Assembly: GCA_041649675.1 (NCBI GenBank)
Contig: JBAZMQ010000003.1
Coordinates: 5,335 to 69,334, forward strand
Direction of reading: 5' to 3'
Length of the DNA: 64,000 bases
Source: Patescibacteria group bacterium
GTDB taxonomy: Bacteria; Patescibacteriota; Patescibacteriia; Buchananbacterales; UBA6539
Shown in pieces: positions 6,549-48,556 of the stretch. The notes under the pieces were generated by a model. That model searched no databases. It saw nothing but the letters and a program-made list of their open reading frames with translations, and was not told the origin of the DNA. Made by a program: the position numbers and the translations under genes. Position 1 is the stretch's first letter. Every line of letters starts with the position of its first letter.

Positions 6549-6620
6549 GGCCAGGTAGCCAAGTAGTAAGGCAGTGGTCTGCAAAACCGCTATGCATGGG
6601 TGCAATTCCCATCCTGGCCT
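6549..6620 (+). tRNA. tRNA-Cys (anticodon GCA)
   Basis: Acceptor ggccagg/cctggcc, D-arm tagccaagtagtaaggc, anticodon stem gtggt/accgc with loop ctGCAaa, T-arm atggg-tgcaatt-cccat. No encoded CCA. Confidence 0.75.
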
Positions 6621-6638
6621 TAATTAATCTATATTATT

Positions 6639-8699
6639 ATGAATGTTTCCGAATTAGCCAGAAAATTAAAGACTACAAGCAAAGAGCTGCTAGAAATTTT
6701 ACCAGCAGTCGGTTTTGATATTGGCCGGCGCGCAATTAAAATTGATGATCGCCAGGCCCAAAAAATTGTTGAACGTTGGCCGCAACTTTTAGCCGAATAT
6801 AAATTTAAGTTTAAAACTGAAGAAGAAAAAGAAGCCGAAGAAACCGTAGTCAAAAAAGTTGAAGAGAAAAAATCAGTTTCTATTGGCTCAGTCATTCGGG
6901 TTAAAGATTTTGCCGAGAAATTAAAATTGCCTTTATCAAAAGTGATGGCAGAACTAATGAAAAATGGAGTGCTTTCTTCAATGAATGAGGAAATTGATTT
7001 TGATACGGCTGCGATTGTTGGTTTTCAATTGGGCTTTGAAATAATTTCTGATACGACAACTGTAGCAGAAAACGAAAAAACCACTTCGGAAAAATTGGAA
7101 AGTTTATTAGCCGAAGATGATAAAACTAAATTGAAAGAGCGCGCGCCAGTCGTTGTGGTGATGGGGCATGTTGATCATGGTAAAACTAAATTACTGGATG
7201 CAATTAGAAAAACGGATGTGGTCGCGGGCGAAAGCGGCGGCATTACTCAACACATCGGTGCCTACCAAGTGACAGTTCCGCTAAAGGCGGAATTGTCATC
7301 CCGACCAAAGGGAGGGATCCCTCGCGCGGCTCGGGATGATTTTGCCGCCGGCAAAATCACATTTATTGATACGCCCGGCCATGAGGCTTTTACGACTATG
7401 CGGTCGCGTGGCGCTCGAGTAGCTGATATTGCTATTTTGGTGATTGCGGCCGATGACAGTATTCAGCCTCAAACTAAAGAATCAATTAAAATTATTAATT
7501 CTGTCGGTTTGCCGATGATTGTGGCCATTAATAAAATTGATAAGCCTGATGCTAATATTGAAAAAGTTAAACAAGATTTAGCGGCTTTAAATCTAGTGCC
7601 GGAAGAATGGGGCGGCAAAACCATTTGCGTGCCAATTTCAGCTAAAGCCGGTACGGGTATTGATGATTTATTGGAAATGATTTTATTGGTGGCTGAAACC
7701 GAAAAAGAAAACATTATGGCTAATCCCGATAAATTGGCTGTTGGCACAATTATTGAATCAAGGATTAACCGGGATGAAGGTCCGGTGGCAACAGTTTTGG
7801 TTCAGGCTGGAACTTTGCACCTTGGTGATTTGGTAGAAATTTCGGGCAATTTTTATGGCAAAATTAGAGCTATGAAAAATTATCGGGGTCAAGACGTTTC
7901 TAAGGCTACACCATCAATGCCGGTTAAAATTTTGGGTTTAAAAGCGGCTGCTTCGGTTGGTGATATTTTACAAGTTTCTGACGATTTAGGTAAACGAAAA
8001 AAAATAAAGAAATATCAGCTTAATCAGCAAGCGGTAGATTATTCAAAACCGTTGGAAGTTAATAGCGAAACCAATGCTGAAATGGTTTCTTTAAATTTAA
8101 TTTTACGCGCTGACGTTTTGGGTTCGTTGGAAGCAATTATTGCTTCCTTAAATAAACTTAGTAATTCAGAAGTTTCAATTAACCTTATTGTTAAAGGTTT
8201 GGGCAATATTACCGAGGGTGATATTACACGTGCTGAAGCGAGTAATGCTCTAATTTTAGGCTTTCATGTCAAAGCTACGCAAGCAGCGGAAAATATTGCC
8301 AAAGAAAAAAAAGTAGAAATTAAAACTTACGAAGTTATTTATCATTTATTGGATGAAGTAAAATCCCGTTTGGAAAAGTTATTAGTACCTGAAGTTATAA
8401 AAACTGAATTAGGCCGTCTTAAGGTCTTGGCTATTTTCCGCAAGGAGTCTAATTCAATAATTGTTGGCGGTATGGTCACTAAGGGAGTAATTTTACTAAA
8501 TAGTAAAGCTGATGTTTTGCGCGATAAACGAAAGATTGCTACCGGCCATATTACTCAATTACAAGTGAATAAAGTTGCTGTCAATGAAATGCCTCAAGGC
8601 AAAGAAGGTGGTTTAAAATTTGAAGGTAAACCAGTAGTTTTGCCAGGCGATATTTTAGAAGTTTATCAGGAAGAAGTTAAAGCCAAAAAACTTAAATAA
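6639..8699 (+). CDS. infB: translation initiation factor IF-2
   Basis: G-domain motifs GHVDHGKT, DTPGH and NKIDK are present. The C-terminal domains are collinear with IF-2. The 686-aa length is typical of a short-form IF-2. Confidence 0.95.
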   Translation: MNVSELARKLKTTSKELLEILPAVGFDIGRRAIKIDDRQAQKIVERWPQLLAEYKFKFKTEEEKEAEETVVKKVEEKKSVSIGSVIRVKDFAEKLKLPLSKVMAELMKNGVLSSMNEEIDFDTAAIVGFQLGFEIISDTTTVAENEKTTSEKLESLLAEDDKTKLKERAPVVVVMGHVDHGKTKLLDAIRKTDVVAGESGGITQHIGAYQVTVPLKAELSSRPKGGIPRAARDDFAAGKITFIDTPGHEAFTTMRSRGARVADIAILVIAADDSIQPQTKESIKIINSVGLPMIVAINKIDKPDANIEKVKQDLAALNLVPEEWGGKTICVPISAKAGTGIDDLLEMILLVAETEKENIMANPDKLAVGTIIESRINRDEGPVATVLVQAGTLHLGDLVEISGNFYGKIRAMKNYRGQDVSKATPSMPVKILGLKAAASVGDILQVSDDLGKRKKIKKYQLNQQAVDYSKPLEVNSETNAEMVSLNLILRADVLGSLEAIIASLNKLSNSEVSINLIVKGLGNITEGDITRAEASNALILGFHVKATQAAENIAKEKKVEIKTYEVIYHLLDEVKSRLEKLLVPEVIKTELGRLKVLAIFRKESNSIIVGGMVTKGVILLNSKADVLRDKRKIATGHITQLQVNKVAVNEMPQGKEGGLKFEGKPVVLPGDILEVYQEEVKAKKLK
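7272..7352 (+). repeat. GC-rich palindromic insertion in-frame within the infB G domain
   Basis: About 20 extra residues (PLKAELSSRPKGGIPRAARDDFAA) sit between IGAYQV and ITFIDTPGH, where IF-2 proteins normally have 6-8. The DNA carries ccgctaaaggcgg and a tcatcccga...tcgggatga inverted repeat, both seen in intergenic elements in this window. Confidence 0.5.
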
Positions 8700-8790
8700 G
8701 AATTAAATAAGCAAGATAAGTTTTGGGCCAGATAAGCAAGATAAGTATTTTTTATCTTGCTTACTGCTTATCTTGCCTATCTTGCTTACT
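8700..8790. repeat. direct and inverted ataagcaag/cttgcttat repeats between infB and rbfA
   Basis: gataagcaagataag-tattttttatcttgcttactgcttatcttgcctatcttgcttact. Probably a terminator-like hairpin plus tandem copies. Confidence 0.5.
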
Positions 8791-9132
8791 ATGTCTCATC
8801 GTATATTTCAAGTTAATGAATTAATCAGGCAAGAGTTAAGTAAATTATTTTTAACCGAACTTGAATTTCCCAGTGACTGTTTAGTCACAATTCTTAAAGT
8901 TGAAACCTCAAAGGATTTACGCAACGCTAAAGTTTGGTTTTCAGTTTTGCCAGTAAAGTATACCAAAAAAGTTTCAAACAAATTAAACTCCAATTCCGGT
9001 CACTTACACTTTTTGCTAAAAAAGAAACTGTCCATGAACCCATTACCCCGTTTATTTTTTGCTTTTGATGATACCGAGGCCAAAGCGGCCGACATTGAGT
9101 CGCTGCTTGACCGGATCAGAAAAGAAGAGTAA
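8791..9132 (+). CDS. rbfA: ribosome-binding factor A
   Basis: ELIRQELSKLF...VTILKVETSKDLRNAKVWFSVLP fits RbfA. The start is placed at MSHR. The longer ORF begins at 8773. Confidence 0.8.
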   Translation: MSHRIFQVNELIRQELSKLFLTELEFPSDCLVTILKVETSKDLRNAKVWFSVLPVKYTKKVSNKLNSNSGHLHFLLKKKLSMNPLPRLFFAFDDTEAKAADIESLLDRIRKEE

Positions 9133-9277: not shown

Positions 9278-10246
9278 ATGGAAATTTCAGAAATCAGTCA
9301 AAAAATTTATCAACAAATTAAACAAGCTCAAAATATATTATTGATTGCTCATCCGCGGCCTGATGCCGACGCGTTAGGCAGTTTAGTAGCCCTTGGAAGC
9401 TGGTTGGATTTTTTAGGTAAAACTCATACTAAGTTTTGTCTTGATCAACCGGCTAACAGTTTGTCCTGGTTGACTAGCTATCAACCAATTATTACGGATC
9501 CAAATTATTTAATTAGCCAGCAGTATGATTTAATTGTAGTTTTGGATTCAGGTGATTTGAAATACGCCGGGGTTGATAAACTTTTACCCCAATTTTCTTT
9601 TTTGCCACCGATTATCAATATTGATCATCACGCGACCAATCGAAATTTTGGCAGCCTTAACTTAGTTGATACTAAAGCCACTTCAACTACGGAAATTATT
9701 TTTCAGTTTTTTAAAAATTTGAAAGTTAAAATTACGCCCAAGCTGGCTACCGCTTTGTTAGCCGGTATTCTTAACGATACATATAATTTTACCAACCCTA
9801 ATACGAGTTACAAATCTTTAGAAACGGCCTCTAGGCTTTTGCGAGCCGGGGCAATTTTGCCGCAAGTCAGCGATTCAATTTTGAAAAATAAAACCATTGA
9901 TACTTTGCAGATTTGGGGAAAAATTTTGGTTCGTTTGAATCGTAATACTAAATTGGGAATTGTTTCAACCGTTATTACTCAGCAGGATTTGAATGATGAT
10001 TCAATTGCTTCAGAAATTACCGAAGGTATAGCAAATTTTTTAAATAATTTAACCGGAGCCAAGGCAGTGTTAATTTTAGAACAGCAGCCCGACAATATGA
10101 TTAAAGGTAGTTTTAGAACGAATGACGATTTGATTGATGTCTCTAAATTAGCTAAAATACTAGGTGGTGGTGGTCACAAGAAAGCCGCTGGGTTTAAAAT
10201 TAGTGGCAAGCTAATAAATACAGAAAGCGGCTGGCAGGTTATATAA
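9278..10246 (+). CDS. nrnA: DHH/DHHA1 phosphoesterase (NrnA-like oligoribonuclease / pAp phosphatase)
   Basis: Motifs AHPRPDADALGS, IDHH and GGGGHKKAAGF. Confidence 0.8.
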   Translation: MEISEISQKIYQQIKQAQNILLIAHPRPDADALGSLVALGSWLDFLGKTHTKFCLDQPANSLSWLTSYQPIITDPNYLISQQYDLIVVLDSGDLKYAGVDKLLPQFSFLPPIINIDHHATNRNFGSLNLVDTKATSTTEIIFQFFKNLKVKITPKLATALLAGILNDTYNFTNPNTSYKSLETASRLLRAGAILPQVSDSILKNKTIDTLQIWGKILVRLNRNTKLGIVSTVITQQDLNDDSIASEITEGIANFLNNLTGAKAVLILEQQPDNMIKGSFRTNDDLIDVSKLAKILGGGGHKKAAGFKISGKLINTESGWQVI

Positions 10247-10280
10247 ATCGAATCAGGAATCGTGAATTATGAATTATGGT

Positions 10281-10316
10281 TTTATTTCCTTAATTCCTAA
10301 TTCCTAATTCCTAATT
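10281..10316. repeat. tandem heptamer repeat (cctaatt, about 4 copies) with an upstream inverted aggaat
   Basis: ccttaattcctaattcctaattcctaattct in the clpP upstream region. Confidence 0.6.
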
Positions 10317-10323
10317 CTAAAAT

Positions 10324-10899
10324 ATGTATCTCATCCCAACTGTCATTGAAAAATCTAATTATGGCGAGCGAGCTTATGATATTTATTCTCGCTTGCTTAA
10401 AGAAAGAATTATTTTTTTGGGTTCACCCATTGATGATGCGGTAGCCAACACCGTCATTGCCCAACTTTTGTTTTTAGACAGCGAAGACACCAAAAAGGAT
10501 ATCAAGCTTTATATTAACAGTCCGGGCGGATCAGTCACGGCTGGTTTGGCAATTTATGACACCATGCAATATGTCAAAGCCGACGTGATGACAATTTGTA
10601 TTGGTATGGCTGCTTCCATGGGCGCATTGATTCTGGCTTCCGGTGCCAAGGGTAAAAGAATTGCTTTGCCTAATGCCGAAATCATGCTGCATCAAGTCAT
10701 GGGCGGCGCCGAAGGCCAAGCCACAGATATTAAAATTAGGGCCGAACATATTTTGCGAATCAAAGAACGAATGAATCAGATTTTGGCTTCTCATACCGGT
10801 CAGTCAATTAAAAAAATTGAGCAGGACACTGACCGTGATTATTTTATGAATTCGGATGAAGCCAAAAAATATGGGATTGTTGATAAGATTATCAAGTAA
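10324..10899 (+). CDS. clpP: ATP-dependent Clp protease proteolytic subunit
   Basis: [16 protein letters not shown], catalytic Ser context GMAASMGA, and MLHQ. Length 191 aa. Confidence 0.95.
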
Positions 10900-10920
10900 T
10901 CCATAGTTTCTATATTAAAA

Positions 10921-10948
10921 ATAAAAACCGGAAAACATCCGGTTTTTG
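10921..10948. terminator. rho-independent terminator (aaaaaccgg-aaaacat-ccggttttt), likely bidirectional
   Basis: Perfect hairpin flanked by A-run and T-run, between convergent clpP and the CSD-like gene. Confidence 0.65.
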
Positions 10949-11027
10949 GATTTGGTAAAAATTATTGCTAATTTTTTAAAAATAAGAAAATCCCGCAAGG
11001 TTGTCGCCTTACGGGATAGGGATAATC

Positions 11028-11810
11028 CTAATGAAACCCATTTTTGCAGTAAAAGAGATAAACCGGCCGCGGGGAGTTATCTTCGTCAACATCCAGCCAT
11101 GCTCCATTTTTTCTAAACTGGAGGTAATGAGAGACAAAGATTTCAACCCTTACTGCAGCACTGGGCGGCGGGATGGTTCTGTCTCTTAGATTCTGCCACT
11201 TGTTTGTTTTAACAAATGAAAGAAGGCTTTCAAAATTGTTACCTTGCCAGAGCACCTCGTCTTTTCCGAGATTGCTTTTTGTCCCGGCCCTGGTGTTTCT
11301 GATTATGCGCCAGTAGGTCGCCTGATTAAGCTTTTCCACCGCTATTTCCAAATTTAATAACCTCGCCCACTTTGTCACTTGAGGCAGCTTGCCTACGTCA
11401 ATCGGCGGCCTGGTGGCCAAAATGACAATTTGGTCTGCCCGTCGGGGGGAAACGAAATCTTGGAAATAAGTCGGTTGGTTGCAGGCCAAGATTTCGAGAT
11501 TTTCATTTGCCCCACCGCATTCAATTCTACGGCAGCCAGAGACATGAAAAAAGTATTGCTGGCCTTCAGCCGACACAAACCCAAAGCCTTCGCCTTGTTT
11601 AAAACGACCATCTTTTCCCGTTGCAGCTTTAAAGCTGTTAACTACAGCAATTTGCCAATCGTTTTGTTCCAATACCTTGTCTACATTTGTCTCAGCCCCT
11701 GCCATTGTTATTGCCAATGCAGTCTCCATATCGATTTCCTTCATCAGGTTAAAGATCCATATATTTTTACAACCCAAATTAAAGTAAGGGTTGACTTGCC
11801 ACCCTATCAC
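11028..11810 (-). CDS. hypothetical protein with a cold-shock-domain-like N-terminal segment, GC-rich
   Basis: GKDGRFKQGEGFGFVSAEGQQYFFHVS resembles the CSD core (KGFGFI...DVFVHFS). The C-terminal ~150 aa are unassigned. The real start may be the internal MKEIDMETALAI. GC is well above background. Confidence 0.4.
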   Translation of the reverse strand: MIGWQVNPYFNLGCKNIWIFNLMKEIDMETALAITMAGAETNVDKVLEQNDWQIAVVNSFKAATGKDGRFKQGEGFGFVSAEGQQYFFHVSGCRRIECGGANENLEILACNQPTYFQDFVSPRRADQIVILATRPPIDVGKLPQVTKWARLLNLEIAVEKLNQATYWRIIRNTRAGTKSNLGKDEVLWQGNNFESLLSFVKTNKWQNLRDRTIPPPSAAVRVEIFVSHYLQFRKNGAWLDVDEDNSPRPVYLFYCKNGFH

Positions 11811-11868
11811 ATTTAATCATTTTTGTCAATGCAAAAACGTAAATTTTGGTGGTTTTAACTTTTAGCCC

Positions 11869-11896
11869 TTGACACCTTTTTTAGATCTGCTAAGAT
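11869..11896 (+). promoter_or_regulatory. sigma70-like promoter (TTGACA, 16 nt spacer, TAAGAT)
   Basis: Consensus hexamers. Drives the transcript that begins about 11903. Confidence 0.45.
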
Positions 11897-11902
11897 ACTT
11901 AC

Positions 11903-12067
11903 ATCATTAACAACTGAGAGGTTATCAAGAGTGCTACTTGCTAAGGGTACTGGCCCAAAAGTAGCCAGCAACTCGGTTTCCTATCTGGAAGCGACAGAGT
12001 GCTAAATCCAGCCCATTAGGGGAAGATAACAAGGATTTTAAAGACTCTTGCCCAAGAGTTTTTTTGA
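11903..12067 (+). ncRNA. candidate small structured RNA or 5' leader (about 165 nt) bounded by a promoter and a terminator
   Basis: GC-rich. Internal pairings gctactt/aagtagc and ccag/ctgg; agagtgcta occurs twice. Ends in the hairpin aagactcttg-ccc-aagagttttttt. A second hairpin (gatcgaaaaaagctaa...ttagctttttttgatc) follows before the next CDS. Confidence 0.3.
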
Positions 12068-12165
12068 TCGAAAAAAGCTAATCTTTTCCCCAAGAAGGTT
12101 AGCTTTTTTTGATCTTTGTATATAGAAGTATAGGTGGATAAAAAAACCAAAAAGGAGGGTCGGAC

Positions 12166-12669
12166 ATGGGCCTTGTTATACAATTTCAACGACGAGCGAT
12201 TGAGGCTTTATTGCCTCATGTAATTGAAAAACCGATTCCGTCCAATTTAGCACTGGGTGCAGTTAACTTTTCTATCAAGGGTGGATCTCGTTTATTTGCC
12301 TTGGGTGTAAGTCCGGGATATGGCACTTGTGCCTCAATCCATGACATGAATGTCTTGGTTCTGGGAGAACAAAGACCAAAGTCTACTCCTTGGCTTCCAG
12401 CCCAACAGCCGATTTGCCATTGTGCCTATGCCGTTTTGTTACGTGACCTAACTAAAGGTGAATATGTGGAATGGTGCAGGTCCAACCTTTATCATGTTCC
12501 CAATCTTTCACAGCGGGTGATTGAAGGATTGCCAACTTCTCAAGCTATTGAAAAGTACATTAGCCGTACGGTCTGCTGTGTTGAGTTACTCCAAGTCGCC
12601 CAAGTCGCCCAAGCGGCTATTACTTGGACAATAATTGGCCATAAGGCTTTTTACGTAGTCCTGTGTTAG
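12166..12669 (+). CDS. hypothetical protein (167 aa), GC-rich
   Basis: Strong RBS aaaaaggagggtcggac before ATG. No recognisable motif. Confidence 0.5.
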   Translation: MGLVIQFQRRAIEALLPHVIEKPIPSNLALGAVNFSIKGGSRLFALGVSPGYGTCASIHDMNVLVLGEQRPKSTPWLPAQQPICHCAYAVLLRDLTKGEYVEWCRSNLYHVPNLSQRVIEGLPTSQAIEKYISRTVCCVELLQVAQVAQAAITWTIIGHKAFYVVLC

Positions 12670-12676
12670 GCATTAA

Positions 12677-12712
12677 CGGGGGAGATTTAATTGAAGTCTC
12701 CCCTCTTTTTTA
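12677..12712 (+). terminator. rho-independent terminator (gggggagat...atctcccc plus T-run)
   Basis: Hairpin followed by tctttttta. Confidence 0.65.
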
Positions 12713-13048
12713 TTTAGAAATAAAGAATTATTTATAAATTGTCAGGCTTGCCAAAAATCAATAAATATGCTAGAGTCTAGAAAGATTCATTTAATTAACA
12801 GAAAAATAGAGAATTAAGTCTAAGAAATTATTCAGGATTAAGAATCAGGCCGAAAAATTGCTTAAATTCCATCATTCTAACTAATTTATTTCGAAAGTAT
12901 ATTATCTCTACAATTCGAAAAATTAGCTTCAAATAATTAAGCTGGCTTTGCTAAGCGCAGTTTGGTTATTCATCTTAAGCCTTTTTAGGCCATCTCAATT
13001 CAAAAAATAATTGCACTTGATTCTCTATCTTTAACCAGATAGAAATTT

Positions 13049-19920: not shown

Positions 19921-20012
19921 GTTAGTTAGCTTGTAGCTTGTCCCGACTCTTTAGTCGGGATTCCGAATTTACATCGGGATAGCTTGTAGCTTGTAGGTAA
20001 TGTTGTATTAAA
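19921..20012. repeat. tagcttgtagcttgt direct repeats flanking cccgac hairpins
   Basis: gttagcttgtagcttgt-cccgactctttagtcggga-ttccgaatttacatcggga-tagcttgtagcttgtagg between rnc and nusB. Confidence 0.6.
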
Positions 20013-43662: not shown

Positions 43663-43728
43663 CCGCCATATGCTCCTGTAGCTTCCGCCAAAGGCGGATC
43701 CGCCTTTGGCCCCTCACCATGCCTCTGA
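43663..43728. repeat. left arm of the nested inverted repeats enclosing tRNA-Arg(CCT)
   Basis: Outer IR ccgccatatgctcctg matches caggagcgtatggcgg at 43891-43906. Hairpin gccaaaggcgg-at-ccgcctttggc at 43687-43710. Inner IR cctttggcccctcaccatgcc matches ggcatggtgaggggccaaagg just 3' of the tRNA. Confidence 0.75.
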
Positions 43729-43800
43729 GCCCCTGTAGTTCAAAGGATAGAACAAGAGACTCCTAAGCTCTGGATGGAGGTTCGATTCCTCCCGGGGGCA
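43729..43800 (+). tRNA. tRNA-Arg (anticodon CCT)
   Basis: Acceptor gcccctg/cgggggc, D-arm gttc-aaaggata-gaac, anticodon loop ctCCTaa (4 bp stem plus one mismatch), T-arm ggagg-ttcgatt-cctcc. Confidence 0.7.
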
Positions 43801-43909
43801 TGGTGAGGGGCCAAAGGACATATAATAAGTTTCCCGACGTAAAATCGGGATCCCAATTCCGCTATAGGCAGACATCGGGACAACTCCTACCAGGAGCGTA
43901 TGGCGGGGT

Positions 43910-44690: not shown

Positions 44691-44826
44691 TTTATTACTT
44701 TTTTGACAAGCCTTGAAGTTGATTATATAATACATTCATTATTTAAAGTTATTTAGTATTAATATGGGCTCTTAGCCTGTTCATTATAATTTGAAAATTT
44801 AAATATTACCGCATACTAACACCAAT

Positions 44827-44900
44827 GGGCCCTTAGCTCAGTTGGCTAGAGCGCTTCCATGGCATGGAAGAGGCCAAGGGTTCAAATCCCTTAGGGTCCA
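44827..44900 (+). tRNA. tRNA-Ala (anticodon GGC)
   Basis: Acceptor gggccct/agggtcc with G3:U70, D-arm agctcagttggctagagc, anticodon stem cttcc/ggaag with loop atGGCat, T-arm ggg-ttcaaat-ccc. Confidence 0.8.
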
Positions 44901-44968
44901 TTGGCGTTGGTAGGCGGTGAAGGGAGTCACCCGAACGTAATATCGGATTTGGACTCACCAAAATATCT

Positions 44969-45253
44969 ATGAGTTACTATGTTTATTTTTTGAAAAGCAT
45001 AAAGAATAATAAAATCTATACAGGATACACTAAAATAGACCCAATTTTAAGAATTAAACAACACAACCAGGGAACGGATAAATGGACTAAAGAAAATGGT
45101 CCATTTTTGTTGTTATATTATGAAAAATATTGTTGTAAAAAAGATGCTATTTTGAGAGAAAAATTTTATAAAACAGGTATTGGCAGAAGAATTCACAATG
45201 CAATAATTAGCTCAGTTTCCGCCAAAGGCGGACCCGCCTTTGGCGGGGGCTAG
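44969..45253 (+). CDS. GIY-YIG nuclease-domain protein (UPF0213 / YhbQ-like)
   Basis: YVYFLKS..NKIYTGYT....R...HN.G is the GIY-YIG signature. 94 aa. The last 11 codons (SAKGGPAFGGG) read through the ccgccaaaggcgg palindrome. Confidence 0.7.
   Translation: MSYYVYFLKSIKNNKIYTGYTKIDPILRIKQHNQGTDKWTKENGPFLLLYYEKYCCKKDAILREKFYKTGIGRRIHNAIISSVSAKGGPAFGGG
45219..45246. repeat. palindromic hairpin ccgccaaaggcgg-ac-ccgcctttggcgg
   Basis: 13-bp stem with a 2-nt loop. Same family as 43687-43710 and 337-349. Confidence 0.8.
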
Positions 45254-45332
45254 AGCGCTTCCATGGCATGGAAGAGGCCAAGGGTTCTCAGCCAGAGGCT
45301 GATGCGCCTTTGGCGCAAAATTCCTTAGGGTC
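45250..45332 (+). pseudogene. partial tRNA-Ala(GGC) copy (D-stem 3' side through 3' end) with a 30-nt insertion in the T-loop
   Basis: ctagagcgcttccatggcatggaagaggccaagggttc is identical to the intact gene, then tcagccagaggctgatgcgcctttggcgcaaaatt, then ccttagggtcca. The 5' acceptor/D segment is replaced by the palindrome. Confidence 0.75.
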
Positions 45333-47634: not shown

Positions 47635-48450
47635 TTAGATAGTTTTTAAAAAAGAGGCGGTATCTTTAGGATTAACTTTAATTTTTTTACATAGCGGCCA
47701 AACCAATTCAAATTGTGATTTGATCAATTCAGTAAAATCACGACTGGTTACGGTAAAGCCAAAACTCTCTTGGCGCGAAGAAATAAAAGCGACTTTATCG
47801 GCATAGGCCCAAAGACCCATGTTCCAACTCATGCCTTTGGGTGAGAGCCGAATCTCGCGGTGAAATTCTTTACTTACGCCCAAAAAGGGATATTGTTTGA
47901 ATTTGACGGCTTTGTCCGGCGGCCAAATCGTTCGCAAATAAATTTTTTTACGAATCCTTTTTTTATTATGTTCAGCCAGCCAGTCTTTGCCTAAAACTTC
48001 AATCATTTCCGAAATTGGCCAGATGCAAAGTGTCACAATATTTTCATACCATAAAATATCATTAATCGCGCGCCGAATTCCCTCTTGGCCGCTGAAAAAT
48101 TTTATCTTGGGCTCCAAGTAATTTATTTGTTTTGAAAGCGTGGGAATAATTTCATCCAGTTCTTTTTTTTGTTTCTGTAGATTTTCAATTCTATCTTTAA
48201 CTAGGAAGGTTAAGTTTTTAGCATCAGTCACTCGAAATAATTTTTTATTATCCTGCGACTGCTCGCTGACCAAACCCAAGCTAATTAAAATTTTTAAATT
48301 ATCATAAACTGACGGGCGGGGGATATTGAGATTTTCCGCGAGCTGGCGCGCCGATGAAGTTCCGGTTTCGAGCAAACGTAAATAAATGCGGCTGGTGGTG
48401 TCGGACAAGTTTAGATTTTTAAGAATGTCTTTAAACATACTTTTTGTCAT
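47635..48450 (-). CDS. TrmB-family transcriptional regulator
   Basis: RIYLRLLETGTSSARQLAENLNIPRPSVYDNLKILISLGLV. Confidence 0.75.
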   Translation of the reverse strand: MTKSMFKDILKNLNLSDTTSRIYLRLLETGTSSARQLAENLNIPRPSVYDNLKILISLGLVSEQSQDNKKLFRVTDAKNLTFLVKDRIENLQKQKKELDEIIPTLSKQINYLEPKIKFFSGQEGIRRAINDILWYENIVTLCIWPISEMIEVLGKDWLAEHNKKRIRKKIYLRTIWPPDKAVKFKQYPFLGVSKEFHREIRLSPKGMSWNMGLWAYADKVAFISSRQESFGFTVTSRDFTELIKSQFELVWPLCKKIKVNPKDTASFLKTI

Positions 48451-48453
48451 TCT

Positions 48454-48556
48454 GAATCCCGCGAAGCGGGATGAAGAATCTCTAATTAATTAAGTGGTTA
48501 AATGAGATTCTTCGTCCCGACGTGTCGTCGGGACTCAGAATGACATTTACATTTAG
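48454..48556. repeat. about 100-bp complex palindrome in the divergent promoter region
   Basis: Arm gtcattctgaatcccgcgaagcgggatgaagaatctc pairs with gagattcttcgtcccgacgtgtcgtcgggactcagaatgac. Each arm carries its own cccgNcg...cNcggg hairpin. A partial copy (tgtcattctgagggaataaagaat) lies at 17078-17105. Confidence 0.75.

Follow-up and report, generated by a model that had tools for sequence, protein, structure and literature searches.

What is the origin of the surplus codons in the infB gene, encoding translation initiation factor IF-2, of a bacterium from the Patescibacteria group (assembly GCA_041649675.1)? The gene is located at positions 6639-8699 (+ strand; an open reading frame (ORF) of 686 amino acids) of the stretch analysed here, 64,000 nt of contig JBAZMQ010000003.1 (positions 5,335 to 69,334), which we refer to as the window. 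A first-pass annotation of this DNA had proposed that a palindromic repeat-family element is inserted in frame into the IF-2 G domain, between the conserved segments IGAY and ITF, and had compared it to the Rickettsia palindromic elements (RPEs). We consider it likely, with a probability of roughly 0.6, that the insert is a translated selfish or neutral palindromic DNA element, residing at a permissive and repeatedly used insertion hot spot in IF-2.

The IF-2 from the window has 30 residues from IGAY to ITF (QVTVPLKAELSSRPKGGIPRAARDDFAAGK), compared to 8 in relatives without the insert. The interval from HIGAY to DTPGH comprises 34 residues, compared to 12 upon alignment with close relatives that lack the insert, which leaves 22 extra residues. 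Among the 120 closest database relatives, this interval is exactly 12 residues long in 101 and 28-48 residues long in 19; it is 12-13 residues long in IF-2 from other phyla (genes fetched from genomes) and 12 residues long in solved IF-2 structures. Sequence comparison thus shows that the segment was inserted and does not belong to the bacterial ground state. The extra DNA spans ~7272-7358. The extra loop codons, P214-G238, are found at 7278-7352 (+ strand), with 25 residues in place of a 3-residue turn between strands beta2 (QVTV) and beta3 (KITF). With a GC content of 0.59 (7280-7359) as compared to 0.385 for the window, the insert is GC-rich, as had been stated, with the flanking conserved G-domain codons already at 0.50-0.54. 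The reading frame is kept in the window, as it is in 55 of 55 carrier proteins and in 30 of 30 metagenomic infB matches having both flanks, and the insert is presumably read by the ribosome as an extra peptide.

In the standard topology of G domains, beta2 follows switch I and beta3 ends in the DxxG motif, so that the beta2-beta3 turn sits at the end of the sheet which is far from the nucleotide. When the IF-2 of the window is aligned to the G domain of G. stearothermophilus IF2 (2LKC), the alignment breaks after QVTV and restarts at KITF. Chain residues 53-56 are opposite query residues 55-80, which again gives 22 extra residues. An AlphaFold2 model of the window IF-2 (54-sequence alignment; mean predicted local distance difference test (pLDDT) score of 80.4) has strands at 207-213 and 238-244 and coil at 214-237, with pLDDT below 50 at 219-235. 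According to alignment and model, the insert would form a disordered 22-residue surface loop in the beta2-beta3 turn, in agreement with the surface position that had been suggested for it.

The insert DNA consists of three adjoining hairpins (H1, 7270-7298; H2, 7296-7339; H3, 7337-7359). For a stretch of 105 nt, the minimum free energy (MFE) is -51.8 kcal/mol as compared to -28.9 ± 3.6 kcal/mol for shuffled sequences (z = -6.4; none of 200 shuffles as good). The previously noted inverted repeat tcatcccga...tcgggatga was located at 7296-7304 and 7331-7339. The DNA is thus strongly palindromic, as described, but the description had missed that there are three adjacent hairpins. H1 (TGACAGTTCCGC taaag GCGGAATTGTCA) has 12-nt arms which are 92% complementary. 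Its 5' arm consists of the host codons V-T-V, and its tip is similar to the tRNA-adjacent hairpins of this genome. H2 has the outer arms TCATCCCGA / TCGGGATGA, encodes SSRPKGGIPRAARDD, and carries at its centre the perfect 12-nt palindrome GAGGGATCCCTC (7312-7323). It is an inverted dimer of a ATCCCGAG..CGAGGGAT-type unit, this unit being joined to ATCCCTCG..CTCGGGAT; the unit loop is of the GCGAAGC type, a mini-hairpin which is stable. H3 (TGATTTTGCCG c CGGCAAAATCA) has 11-nt arms which are 100% complementary, with the 5' arm coding for D-D-F-A and the 3' arm consisting of the host codons K-I-T. The arrangement TCCCGA..TCGGGA occurs 4 times, with 0.03 occurrences expected. We conclude that the element is modular GC-rich palindromic DNA with three hairpins and a length of about 66-90 nt.

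Constraint on the hairpins was analysed in an alignment of 27 distinct infB inserts (A1), with pairs counted on the three-hairpin structure as specified by the analyst. The paired fraction of cells in this alignment is 90.5%. Double-sided changes number 80, whereas shuffled alignments give 19.9 ± 3.4 (none of 500 reaches 80) and sliding the partners by 1-3 columns gives 14-25. Such compensatory changes affect 8 of the 12 pairs in H1 and 5 of the 10 pairs in H3. The invariance of the H2 core in loci derived by pattern search is uninformative because this core was fixed by the search pattern. GGIP/RGIP and RDD were seen independently in carriers derived from protein searches, and the H2 core is identical at synonymous sites across hosts which are 54-84% identical. 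The tip of H1 is freely variable in sequence among the other infB inserts. The codons for SSR (tca tcc cga) are the reverse complement of those for RDD (cgg gat ga), and the residue following RDD covaries with the residue preceding ITF as complementary codons (F/K, S/R, L/K(AAG), H/V, G/T, D/I). These data show that the hairpins are kept at the nucleotide level and that this takes in synonymous positions of the adjoining host codons. The conserved peptide of the insert is a shadow of base pairing.

The 686 stem pairs comprise 647 Watson-Crick, 14 G·U (2%), 10 A·C, and 15 other pairs. With G·U at only 2% and not more than marginally ahead of A·C, this is what is expected for a DNA palindrome and not for a helix in sense-strand RNA. 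On the basis of this asymmetry test, a structure in the sense RNA was rejected. ATC serves as the host Ile codon of xITF in 22 of the 24 type-A carriers, compared to 5 of 31 non-carriers (p = 1.4e-8). ATT is avoided in carriers although it is competent for RNA pairing, which also counts against an RNA structure. Taken together, this points to a constraint on the DNA, and neither on the protein nor on the sense RNA.

Base pairing which is conserved to this degree could reflect a selected cis-acting structure in infB, be it an mRNA pause site, attenuator or terminator, an RNase site, or a DNA palindrome bound by a protein, with the peptide as a by-product. The strong covariation in H1 and H3 fits such a structure, as does the invariance of core nucleotides at synonymous sites in distant hosts. 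In addition, H3 with the subsequent CATTTATT was flagged as terminator-like by a simple scan, and the zero-spacer 12-nt palindrome may resemble the binding site of a dimeric protein. However, relatives with 89-98% identity manage without the insert, the hairpins are decayed or truncated in some lineages, and unrelated palindromes are found in the same loop of Daviesbacteria (all described below). The symmetry of G·U and A·C pairs and the avoidance of ATT also speak against this explanation. No Rfam family was matched: the best match to the insert has E = 2.2 and 15.7 bits compared to a gathering score of 40, and over the window only tRNAs are above the gathering threshold. An intragenic terminator was rejected, as only the H3 of the window fits the terminator pattern and the T-run after H3 is not conserved (e.g., in L064). 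Overall, we consider a selected cis-acting structure quite unlikely.

The insert is not confined to close relatives. Further carriers were obtained by a genome scan (L001, L002, L012), and a metagenome scan with the pattern GAGGGATCCCTCN{6,30}CGGGATGAT resulted in 61 loci, 33 of them in infB and 28 outside infB. The IF-2 proteins of the metagenomic hosts are as low as 36-52% identical to that of the window. One host (L061) is a Candidatus Daviesbacteria member from the Microgenomates group; thus, the same codon position of infB is occupied in two very distant groups of Patescibacteria. Within the Buchananbacteria, and also within the Daviesbacteria, occurrence of the insert is patchy. In a neighbour-joining (NJ) tree of IF-2 proteins, computed after removal of the loop, carriers are scattered among non-carriers. 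By Fitch parsimony, a set of 116 sequences with 18 carriers requires at least 14 changes, and the Daviesbacteria set, with 37 carriers in 117 sequences, requires at least 30; these counts are inflated by errors of the NJ tree and by the use of a carrier as query. Close pairs are nonetheless unambiguous, with a carrier and a non-carrier being 88.9% (L120 and L121), 94% (P0135/P0143), and 98% identical (P0134 and P0205).

The first of these pairs is informative as to how the insert arrived. The insert-less state of L121 is ancestral because its EKNGK turn is common to other non-carriers. The inserts of L120 and L002 share 89-90% nucleotide identity while their genes share only ~70%. The informative sites which flank the insert group L120 with its insert-less sister L121 (18:4 upstream, 12:7 downstream), which indicates that the insert moved without more than a few flanking codons. 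A long recombination tract having brought the insert into L120 was rejected on the same grounds. When the window is compared to its closest carrier, L001, the flanks are 0.81-0.86 identical and the inserts 0.73; compared to L090, the flanks are 0.62 identical and the inserts 0.78. The similarity of inserts is thus independent of the similarity of their hosts, and nearby flanking polymorphisms do not travel with the insert. An assembly artefact was rejected because the insert is present in dozens of independent assemblies. We conclude that one codon position of infB is a recurrent, patchily occupied hot spot and does not reflect a single insertion, an aspect which had been overlooked in the first-pass annotation.

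This distribution also bears on the possibility that the insert is an old, vertically inherited functional loop of the IF-2 G domain which was lost many times. The insert is always in frame and many carriers have the peptide motif SSRP.GGIP...RDDFA in common, as expected for a functional loop. However, the conserved residues are exactly those which are coded by paired nucleotides. The insert-less sisters have the ancestral EKNGK-type turn, which would not be regenerated by deletion. Furthermore, insert similarity is decoupled from host phylogeny, and the loop is predicted to be a disordered coil. We consider it highly improbable that the insert is an inherited loop of this kind.

Not all inserts are intact. 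H3 and part of H2 are lost in L126, and L131 has a 21-residue form which would be explained by a deletion between the repeated GAGAT and GGGAT. L125 and L127 are expanded by extra hairpin units (z = -8.1 for L127), and L124 is decayed (z = -1.3), with ATT as its Ile codon. Intact, truncated, expanded, and decayed forms together resemble the spectrum of a life cycle. In about 26 IF-2 proteins from Daviesbacteria (within P0125-P0233), the same loop carries unrelated, AT-richer inserts (e.g., QISVQVTGDSGQKDKKSSELKPVTSNLITFI and SVQVTGDSGQKDKKSSELKPVTSN). For two of these the DNA was fetched (L128, z = -5.4; L130, z = -5.0), and both are AT-rich palindromes with internal short direct repeats. In L128, a gene for a 76-residue GIY-YIG protein is directly downstream of infB. 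Empty sites show an A-rich turn, e.g., AAAAAAGG or GGAAAACTG, between two strongly conserved blocks. In the metagenome-assembled genome (MAG) of an unclassified bacterium (L020, 923-1009), IF-2 has a 19-residue loop at this place (QAWATSKDNKNIKEIITFV) which is unlike the GC-rich element.

The presence of several unrelated palindromes at the same position would be compatible with local template switching during replication, i.e., quasi-palindrome or fold-back copying at a fragile A-rich turn, in which case there would be no mobile element at all, just a mutational hot spot in a permissive loop. One arm each of H1 and H3 consists of host codons, the stems are near-perfectly Watson-Crick paired, and template switching has been documented to create or perfect hairpins in a single event (PMC8794818). 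However, hosts with only ~40% protein identity share the central module (TCCCGAG...GAGGGATCCCTC...CTCGGGATGA) with one another and with elements outside infB, and thus it was not copied from local infB sequence. Also, the insert of L128 has no reverse-complement source in its flanks. Template switching probably contributes to H1 and H3, but is not the whole story; as the sole explanation we consider it unlikely.

Eight non-infB loci (L060, L065, L071, L072, L075, L084, L100, L109), which we refer to as group A, share far more than the search pattern. They have the left arm TCCCGAGCAAAG at the right distance, and a hairpin TGATCCGC...GCGGATCA follows where infB has TGATTTTGC...GCAAAATCA (TGAT...ATCA type). 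Against the whole three-hairpin model they score 42-49 bits. Group-A elements have a length of ~200 bp, are intergenic with a different gene context in each case, reside on contigs with a GC content of ~0.5, and end in terminal inverted repeats of ~20 nt (tgtcaaaaatatgttccgat). Their fold has a long outer stem (GTCATTGCGAG.../...CTCGCAATGAC) around three internal hairpins and is cloverleaf-like. They appear to represent an undescribed family of MITEs (miniature transposable elements with inverted repeats). Free-standing H2-like hairpins were encountered in four AT-rich contigs (L097, L103, L108, L114), with L108 having a second H2-like copy that was not selected by the pattern. This shows that the central hairpin of the insert is the core module of dispersed intergenic MITE-like elements in other bacteria. 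In 517 kb that were scanned, 15 of the 26 GC-rich hairpins within ORFs are located in IF-2.

Within the window, the same palindromic core had been reported adjacent to tRNA genes. The motif ccgctaaaggcgg is exact at 7278-7290, while the sites near tRNAs read CCGCCAAAGGCGG, with one mismatch (337-349 on the - strand, 43685-43697, 45219-45231, and 45234-45246 on the - strand). At up to 2 mismatches, the core motif has 12 matches compared to 1.26 expected (0 of 100 shuffles as high). By blastn-short, only the tip of H1 is matched (15/16 nt, E ~2), at 336-350, 43683-43698, and 45217-45232. The likeness to these sites is confined to 15-16 nt of the H1 tip, and it is doubtful that the repeats and the insert belong to one family. 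The window contains no second full copy: blastn-short finds pieces of at most 16 nt, and with the covariance model R1 (filters off) the insert reaches 95.7 bits, while no other place in the 64 kb exceeds 18.8 bits. With the covariance model, no extra copy was found in the flanks of the infB loci from 13 carrier relatives.

The block at 45217-45246 is a 30-nt double hairpin (TCCGCCAAAGGCGGA + CCCGCCTTTGGCGGG), that is, a hairpin unit followed by its own reverse complement. It is located in the D-loop of a partial copy of tRNA-Ala(GGC). It is possibly related to the insert, with the likeness extending over 15-16 nt only. Similar single or double hairpins are found at 336-350 and 43683-43710. A version which is identical in 29 of 30 positions occurs as a second in-frame insert in the IF-2 of L098, which also has the G-domain element. 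There, the double hairpin TCCGCCAAAGGCGGACCCGCCTCTGGCGGG (1566-1593; infB on the minus strand) encodes SAKGGPASGG and separates the helix ...EAIEKEIAKI from the strand that follows it in domain C1. We consider the tRNA-adjacent hairpins a real, if odd, family of their own.

Several further observations concern this family and other palindromes in the window. The true tRNA-Ala(GGC) (44826-44901) is followed by an ORF for a GIY-YIG nuclease of 94 residues (44969-45253; Pfam E = 4.6e-14). After this, still within the region 44826-45330, comes the near-exact second tRNA-Ala copy, which begins with TTAGCTCAGTT and is devoid of the 5' acceptor strand. It carries double-hairpin blocks of ~30 nt exactly in the D-loop (the block described above) and in the T-loop (~45289-45318), and the GIY-YIG ORF terminates inside this copy (...SAKGGPAFGGG*). 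For tRNA-Phe (15-89), the 3' part is duplicated at ~170-231 (ggttcaattctgggactcggcacca), with ~30 GC-rich nt at the T-loop position, and a cccgac hairpin is found at 155-170. At 293-371, a sequence resembling a tRNA 5' half (GGGCTGTGGCTCAGTT) runs into a double hairpin (TGCGCCAGAGGCACA + TCCGCCTTTGGCGGA). A similar double hairpin (43676-43710) is upstream of tRNA-Arg(CCT), which is bracketed by the inverted repeat CCCCTCACCATGCC / GGCATGGTGAGGGG (region 43676-43815). An intergenic nested palindrome at 48445-48545 (MFE -58.6, z = -11.3) is cloverleaf-like, with the outer stem GTCATTCTGA / TCAGAATGAC around three hairpins that include ATCCCGCGAAGCGGGAT and GTCCCGACGTGTCGTCGGGAC. Hairpins of the cccgac type are also found at 19941-19979 and 43832-43850.

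Searches in mobile elements and viruses gave few matches. A 75-nt consensus had two weak, chance-like matches to annotated plasmids and none to annotated phages. The 30-nt block did not match viral contigs. The core pattern matched a single viral contig (L132, from IMG/VR), in an ORF of 904 codons (10009-12723) without PHROG family. This ORF has three in-frame hairpin-unit motifs, GGIPHFADSVRNDG, EEGSLADARDD, and VPRFARDD, the last being encoded by GTCCCTCGCTTCGCTCGGGATGAC. This is a hint that protein-coding genes other than infB also take up such units. A doubled peptide profile, a search without power, matched only 2 tiny hypothetical proteins.

In the scenario that we favour for the palindromic element, one or several hairpin-module elements would repeatedly enter and leave one permissive position of infB. 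The underlying process could be transposition-like, or recombination over very short patches, with hairpin or single-stranded DNA as its substrate. The elements would persist because the loop tolerates extra residues and because imprecise deletion from an essential gene would be lethal. Their near-perfect Watson-Crick stems would be kept or renewed by DNA-level processes, either by template switching within quasi-palindromes or by recent arrival, and would not be maintained by selection on the protein or on a fold of the sense-strand RNA. A benefit for the host would not be required.

Several points weigh against this scenario. Strong covariation across hosts that are ~40% identical could also mean that the hairpins are functional. 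The 28 non-infB matches came from an exact pattern of 21 nt derived from the insert, for which a rough estimate gives on the order of 10 chance hits in ~10^12 bases, and a clear extension beyond this pattern is seen only for the group-A elements and the free-standing hairpins of low GC content. There is no second copy in the 64-kb window or in the flanks from the 13 relatives, which leaves a source population of elements in these genomes hypothetical. In a scan that covered part of the window ORFs, no transposase turned up in association with the insert, and there is neither a target-site duplication (no flanking direct repeat) nor a terminal inverted repeat at the insert. Translation of the insert was deduced from conservation of the frame.

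A comparison with known systems places the element between established categories. RPEs are short hairpin-forming palindromes which are found in frame in conserved genes, are translated, and are considered selfish DNA (Ogata et al., 2000, 2002; PMC10969869). The infB insert likewise is palindromic hairpin DNA in frame in a conserved ORF, its peptide is compatible with the fold, and its presence varies between related genomes; the analogy made in the first-pass annotation is apt as a description of behaviour. However, RPEs are ~100-150 bp long, form families with full-length similarity, and reside in dozens of genes per genome, whereas the infB element consists of hairpin modules over 66-108 nt. 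In contrast to the many dispersed copies of RPEs, which lie in unrelated genes as well as in intergenic DNA, it is present once in the 64 kb, with none in the flanks of relatives, and in distant Patescibacteria it recurs at a single codon position of a single gene. Also unlike RPEs, its stems are nearly perfect and borrow host codons. Homology to the RPE-1 to RPE-10 families of the genus Rickettsia is not to be expected, the host being from the Patescibacteria (Candidatus Buchananbacteria).

Repetitive extragenic palindromic (REP) sequences and REPINs are short GC-rich imperfect palindromes with DNA-level constraint, where new units nest beside old ones (PMC3116915, PMC3733652), and the insert is similar in these respects. 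REP units are 20-40 nt long and often form inverted pairs (REPINs); H2 and the 30-nt block both show this REPIN architecture, an inverted dimer of a hairpin unit. However, REPs lie outside genes, number in the tens to hundreds, and are accompanied by a gene for the RAYT (Y1) transposase that mobilises them, whereas the infB insert is intragenic and occurs once in the window. One end of a REP is marked by the tetranucleotide GTAG or CGTC (PMC3733652). None of GTAG, CTAC, CGTC, and GACG occurs within 7267-7360, the nearest CTAC (7262-7265) being part of host Ala-Tyr codons; in group-A elements, CGTC precedes hairpin 2. Like bacterial MITEs (ERIC, Correia, group A), the insert is non-autonomous, structured, and able to fuse in frame with genes, and it has the central hairpin and the following TGAT..ATCA hairpin in common with group A. 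However, it lacks the terminal inverted repeats and target-site duplication of MITEs, its arms merge with host codons, and the group-A elements are intergenic and from other bacteria with a higher GC content.

With hairpins generated by template switching (PMC8794818), the insert shares the perfect stems, apparent compensatory changes that could arise in one step, and arms derived from adjacent sequence; this mechanism generates local arms only, and not an imported core which different lineages share with one another and with loci outside infB. A similar patchy, site-specific occupancy beside conserved motifs of an essential gene, with lateral-looking spread, is seen for inteins and homing elements, but the insert has no splicing or nuclease domain, stays in the protein, and comprises only 22 residues. 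A literature search did not reveal a paper on an insert in IF-2 from Patescibacteria.

A broader interpretation is possible, which we put forward tentatively and with considerable doubt: Patescibacteria might harbour a previously undescribed class of hairpin-module DNA elements of 30-100 nt which home in on particular positions that code for loops, pass from one lineage to another leaving their flanks behind, and turn neighbouring host codons into parts of their stems. Target sites may be the beta2-beta3 turn in infB, a second site in domain C1 of IF-2, and, in copies of tRNA genes, the D-loop and the T-loop. Such elements could be driven by a trans-acting enzyme which acts on single-stranded or hairpin DNA. 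Small free-standing GIY-YIG nucleases adjoin two such sites, one being the ORF at 44969-45253 in the window and the other the gene downstream of infB in L128.

The IF-2 from a public Patescibacteria MAG is 100% identical to the infB product of the window, and the next relatives are from Candidatus Buchananbacteria. The protein has the Pfam domains IF2_N, GTP_EFTU, and IF-2 and matches IF-2 structures from PDB with E-values down to 2e-63. A gene for tRNA-Cys (6549-6620) is directly upstream of infB. Downstream are rbfA (8773-9132) and a gene for a DHH/DHHA1 protein (9278-10246), a gene order that is also found in relatives.

If our interpretation is correct, in-frame selfish palindromes, which have been considered largely Rickettsia-specific, also occur in Patescibacteria, where an essential translation factor carries them in its catalytic domain. 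The new twist would be that one codon position is repeatedly hit or vacated and that the element imposes pairing on neighbouring host codons. The many carriers and non-carriers would provide natural replicates for studying the movement of hairpin elements, the upkeep of palindromes, and the tolerance of a GTPase core to insertions. As a warning, SSRP.GGIP..RDD motifs in IF-2 alignments would reflect DNA palindromes, and neither protein function nor phylogenetic signal. Should the tentatively proposed class of hairpin-module elements exist, IF-2 would be a natural recorder of hairpin-element traffic, and a site-specific, protein-embedded mobile palindrome would give selfish DNA a new way of remodelling essential proteins.

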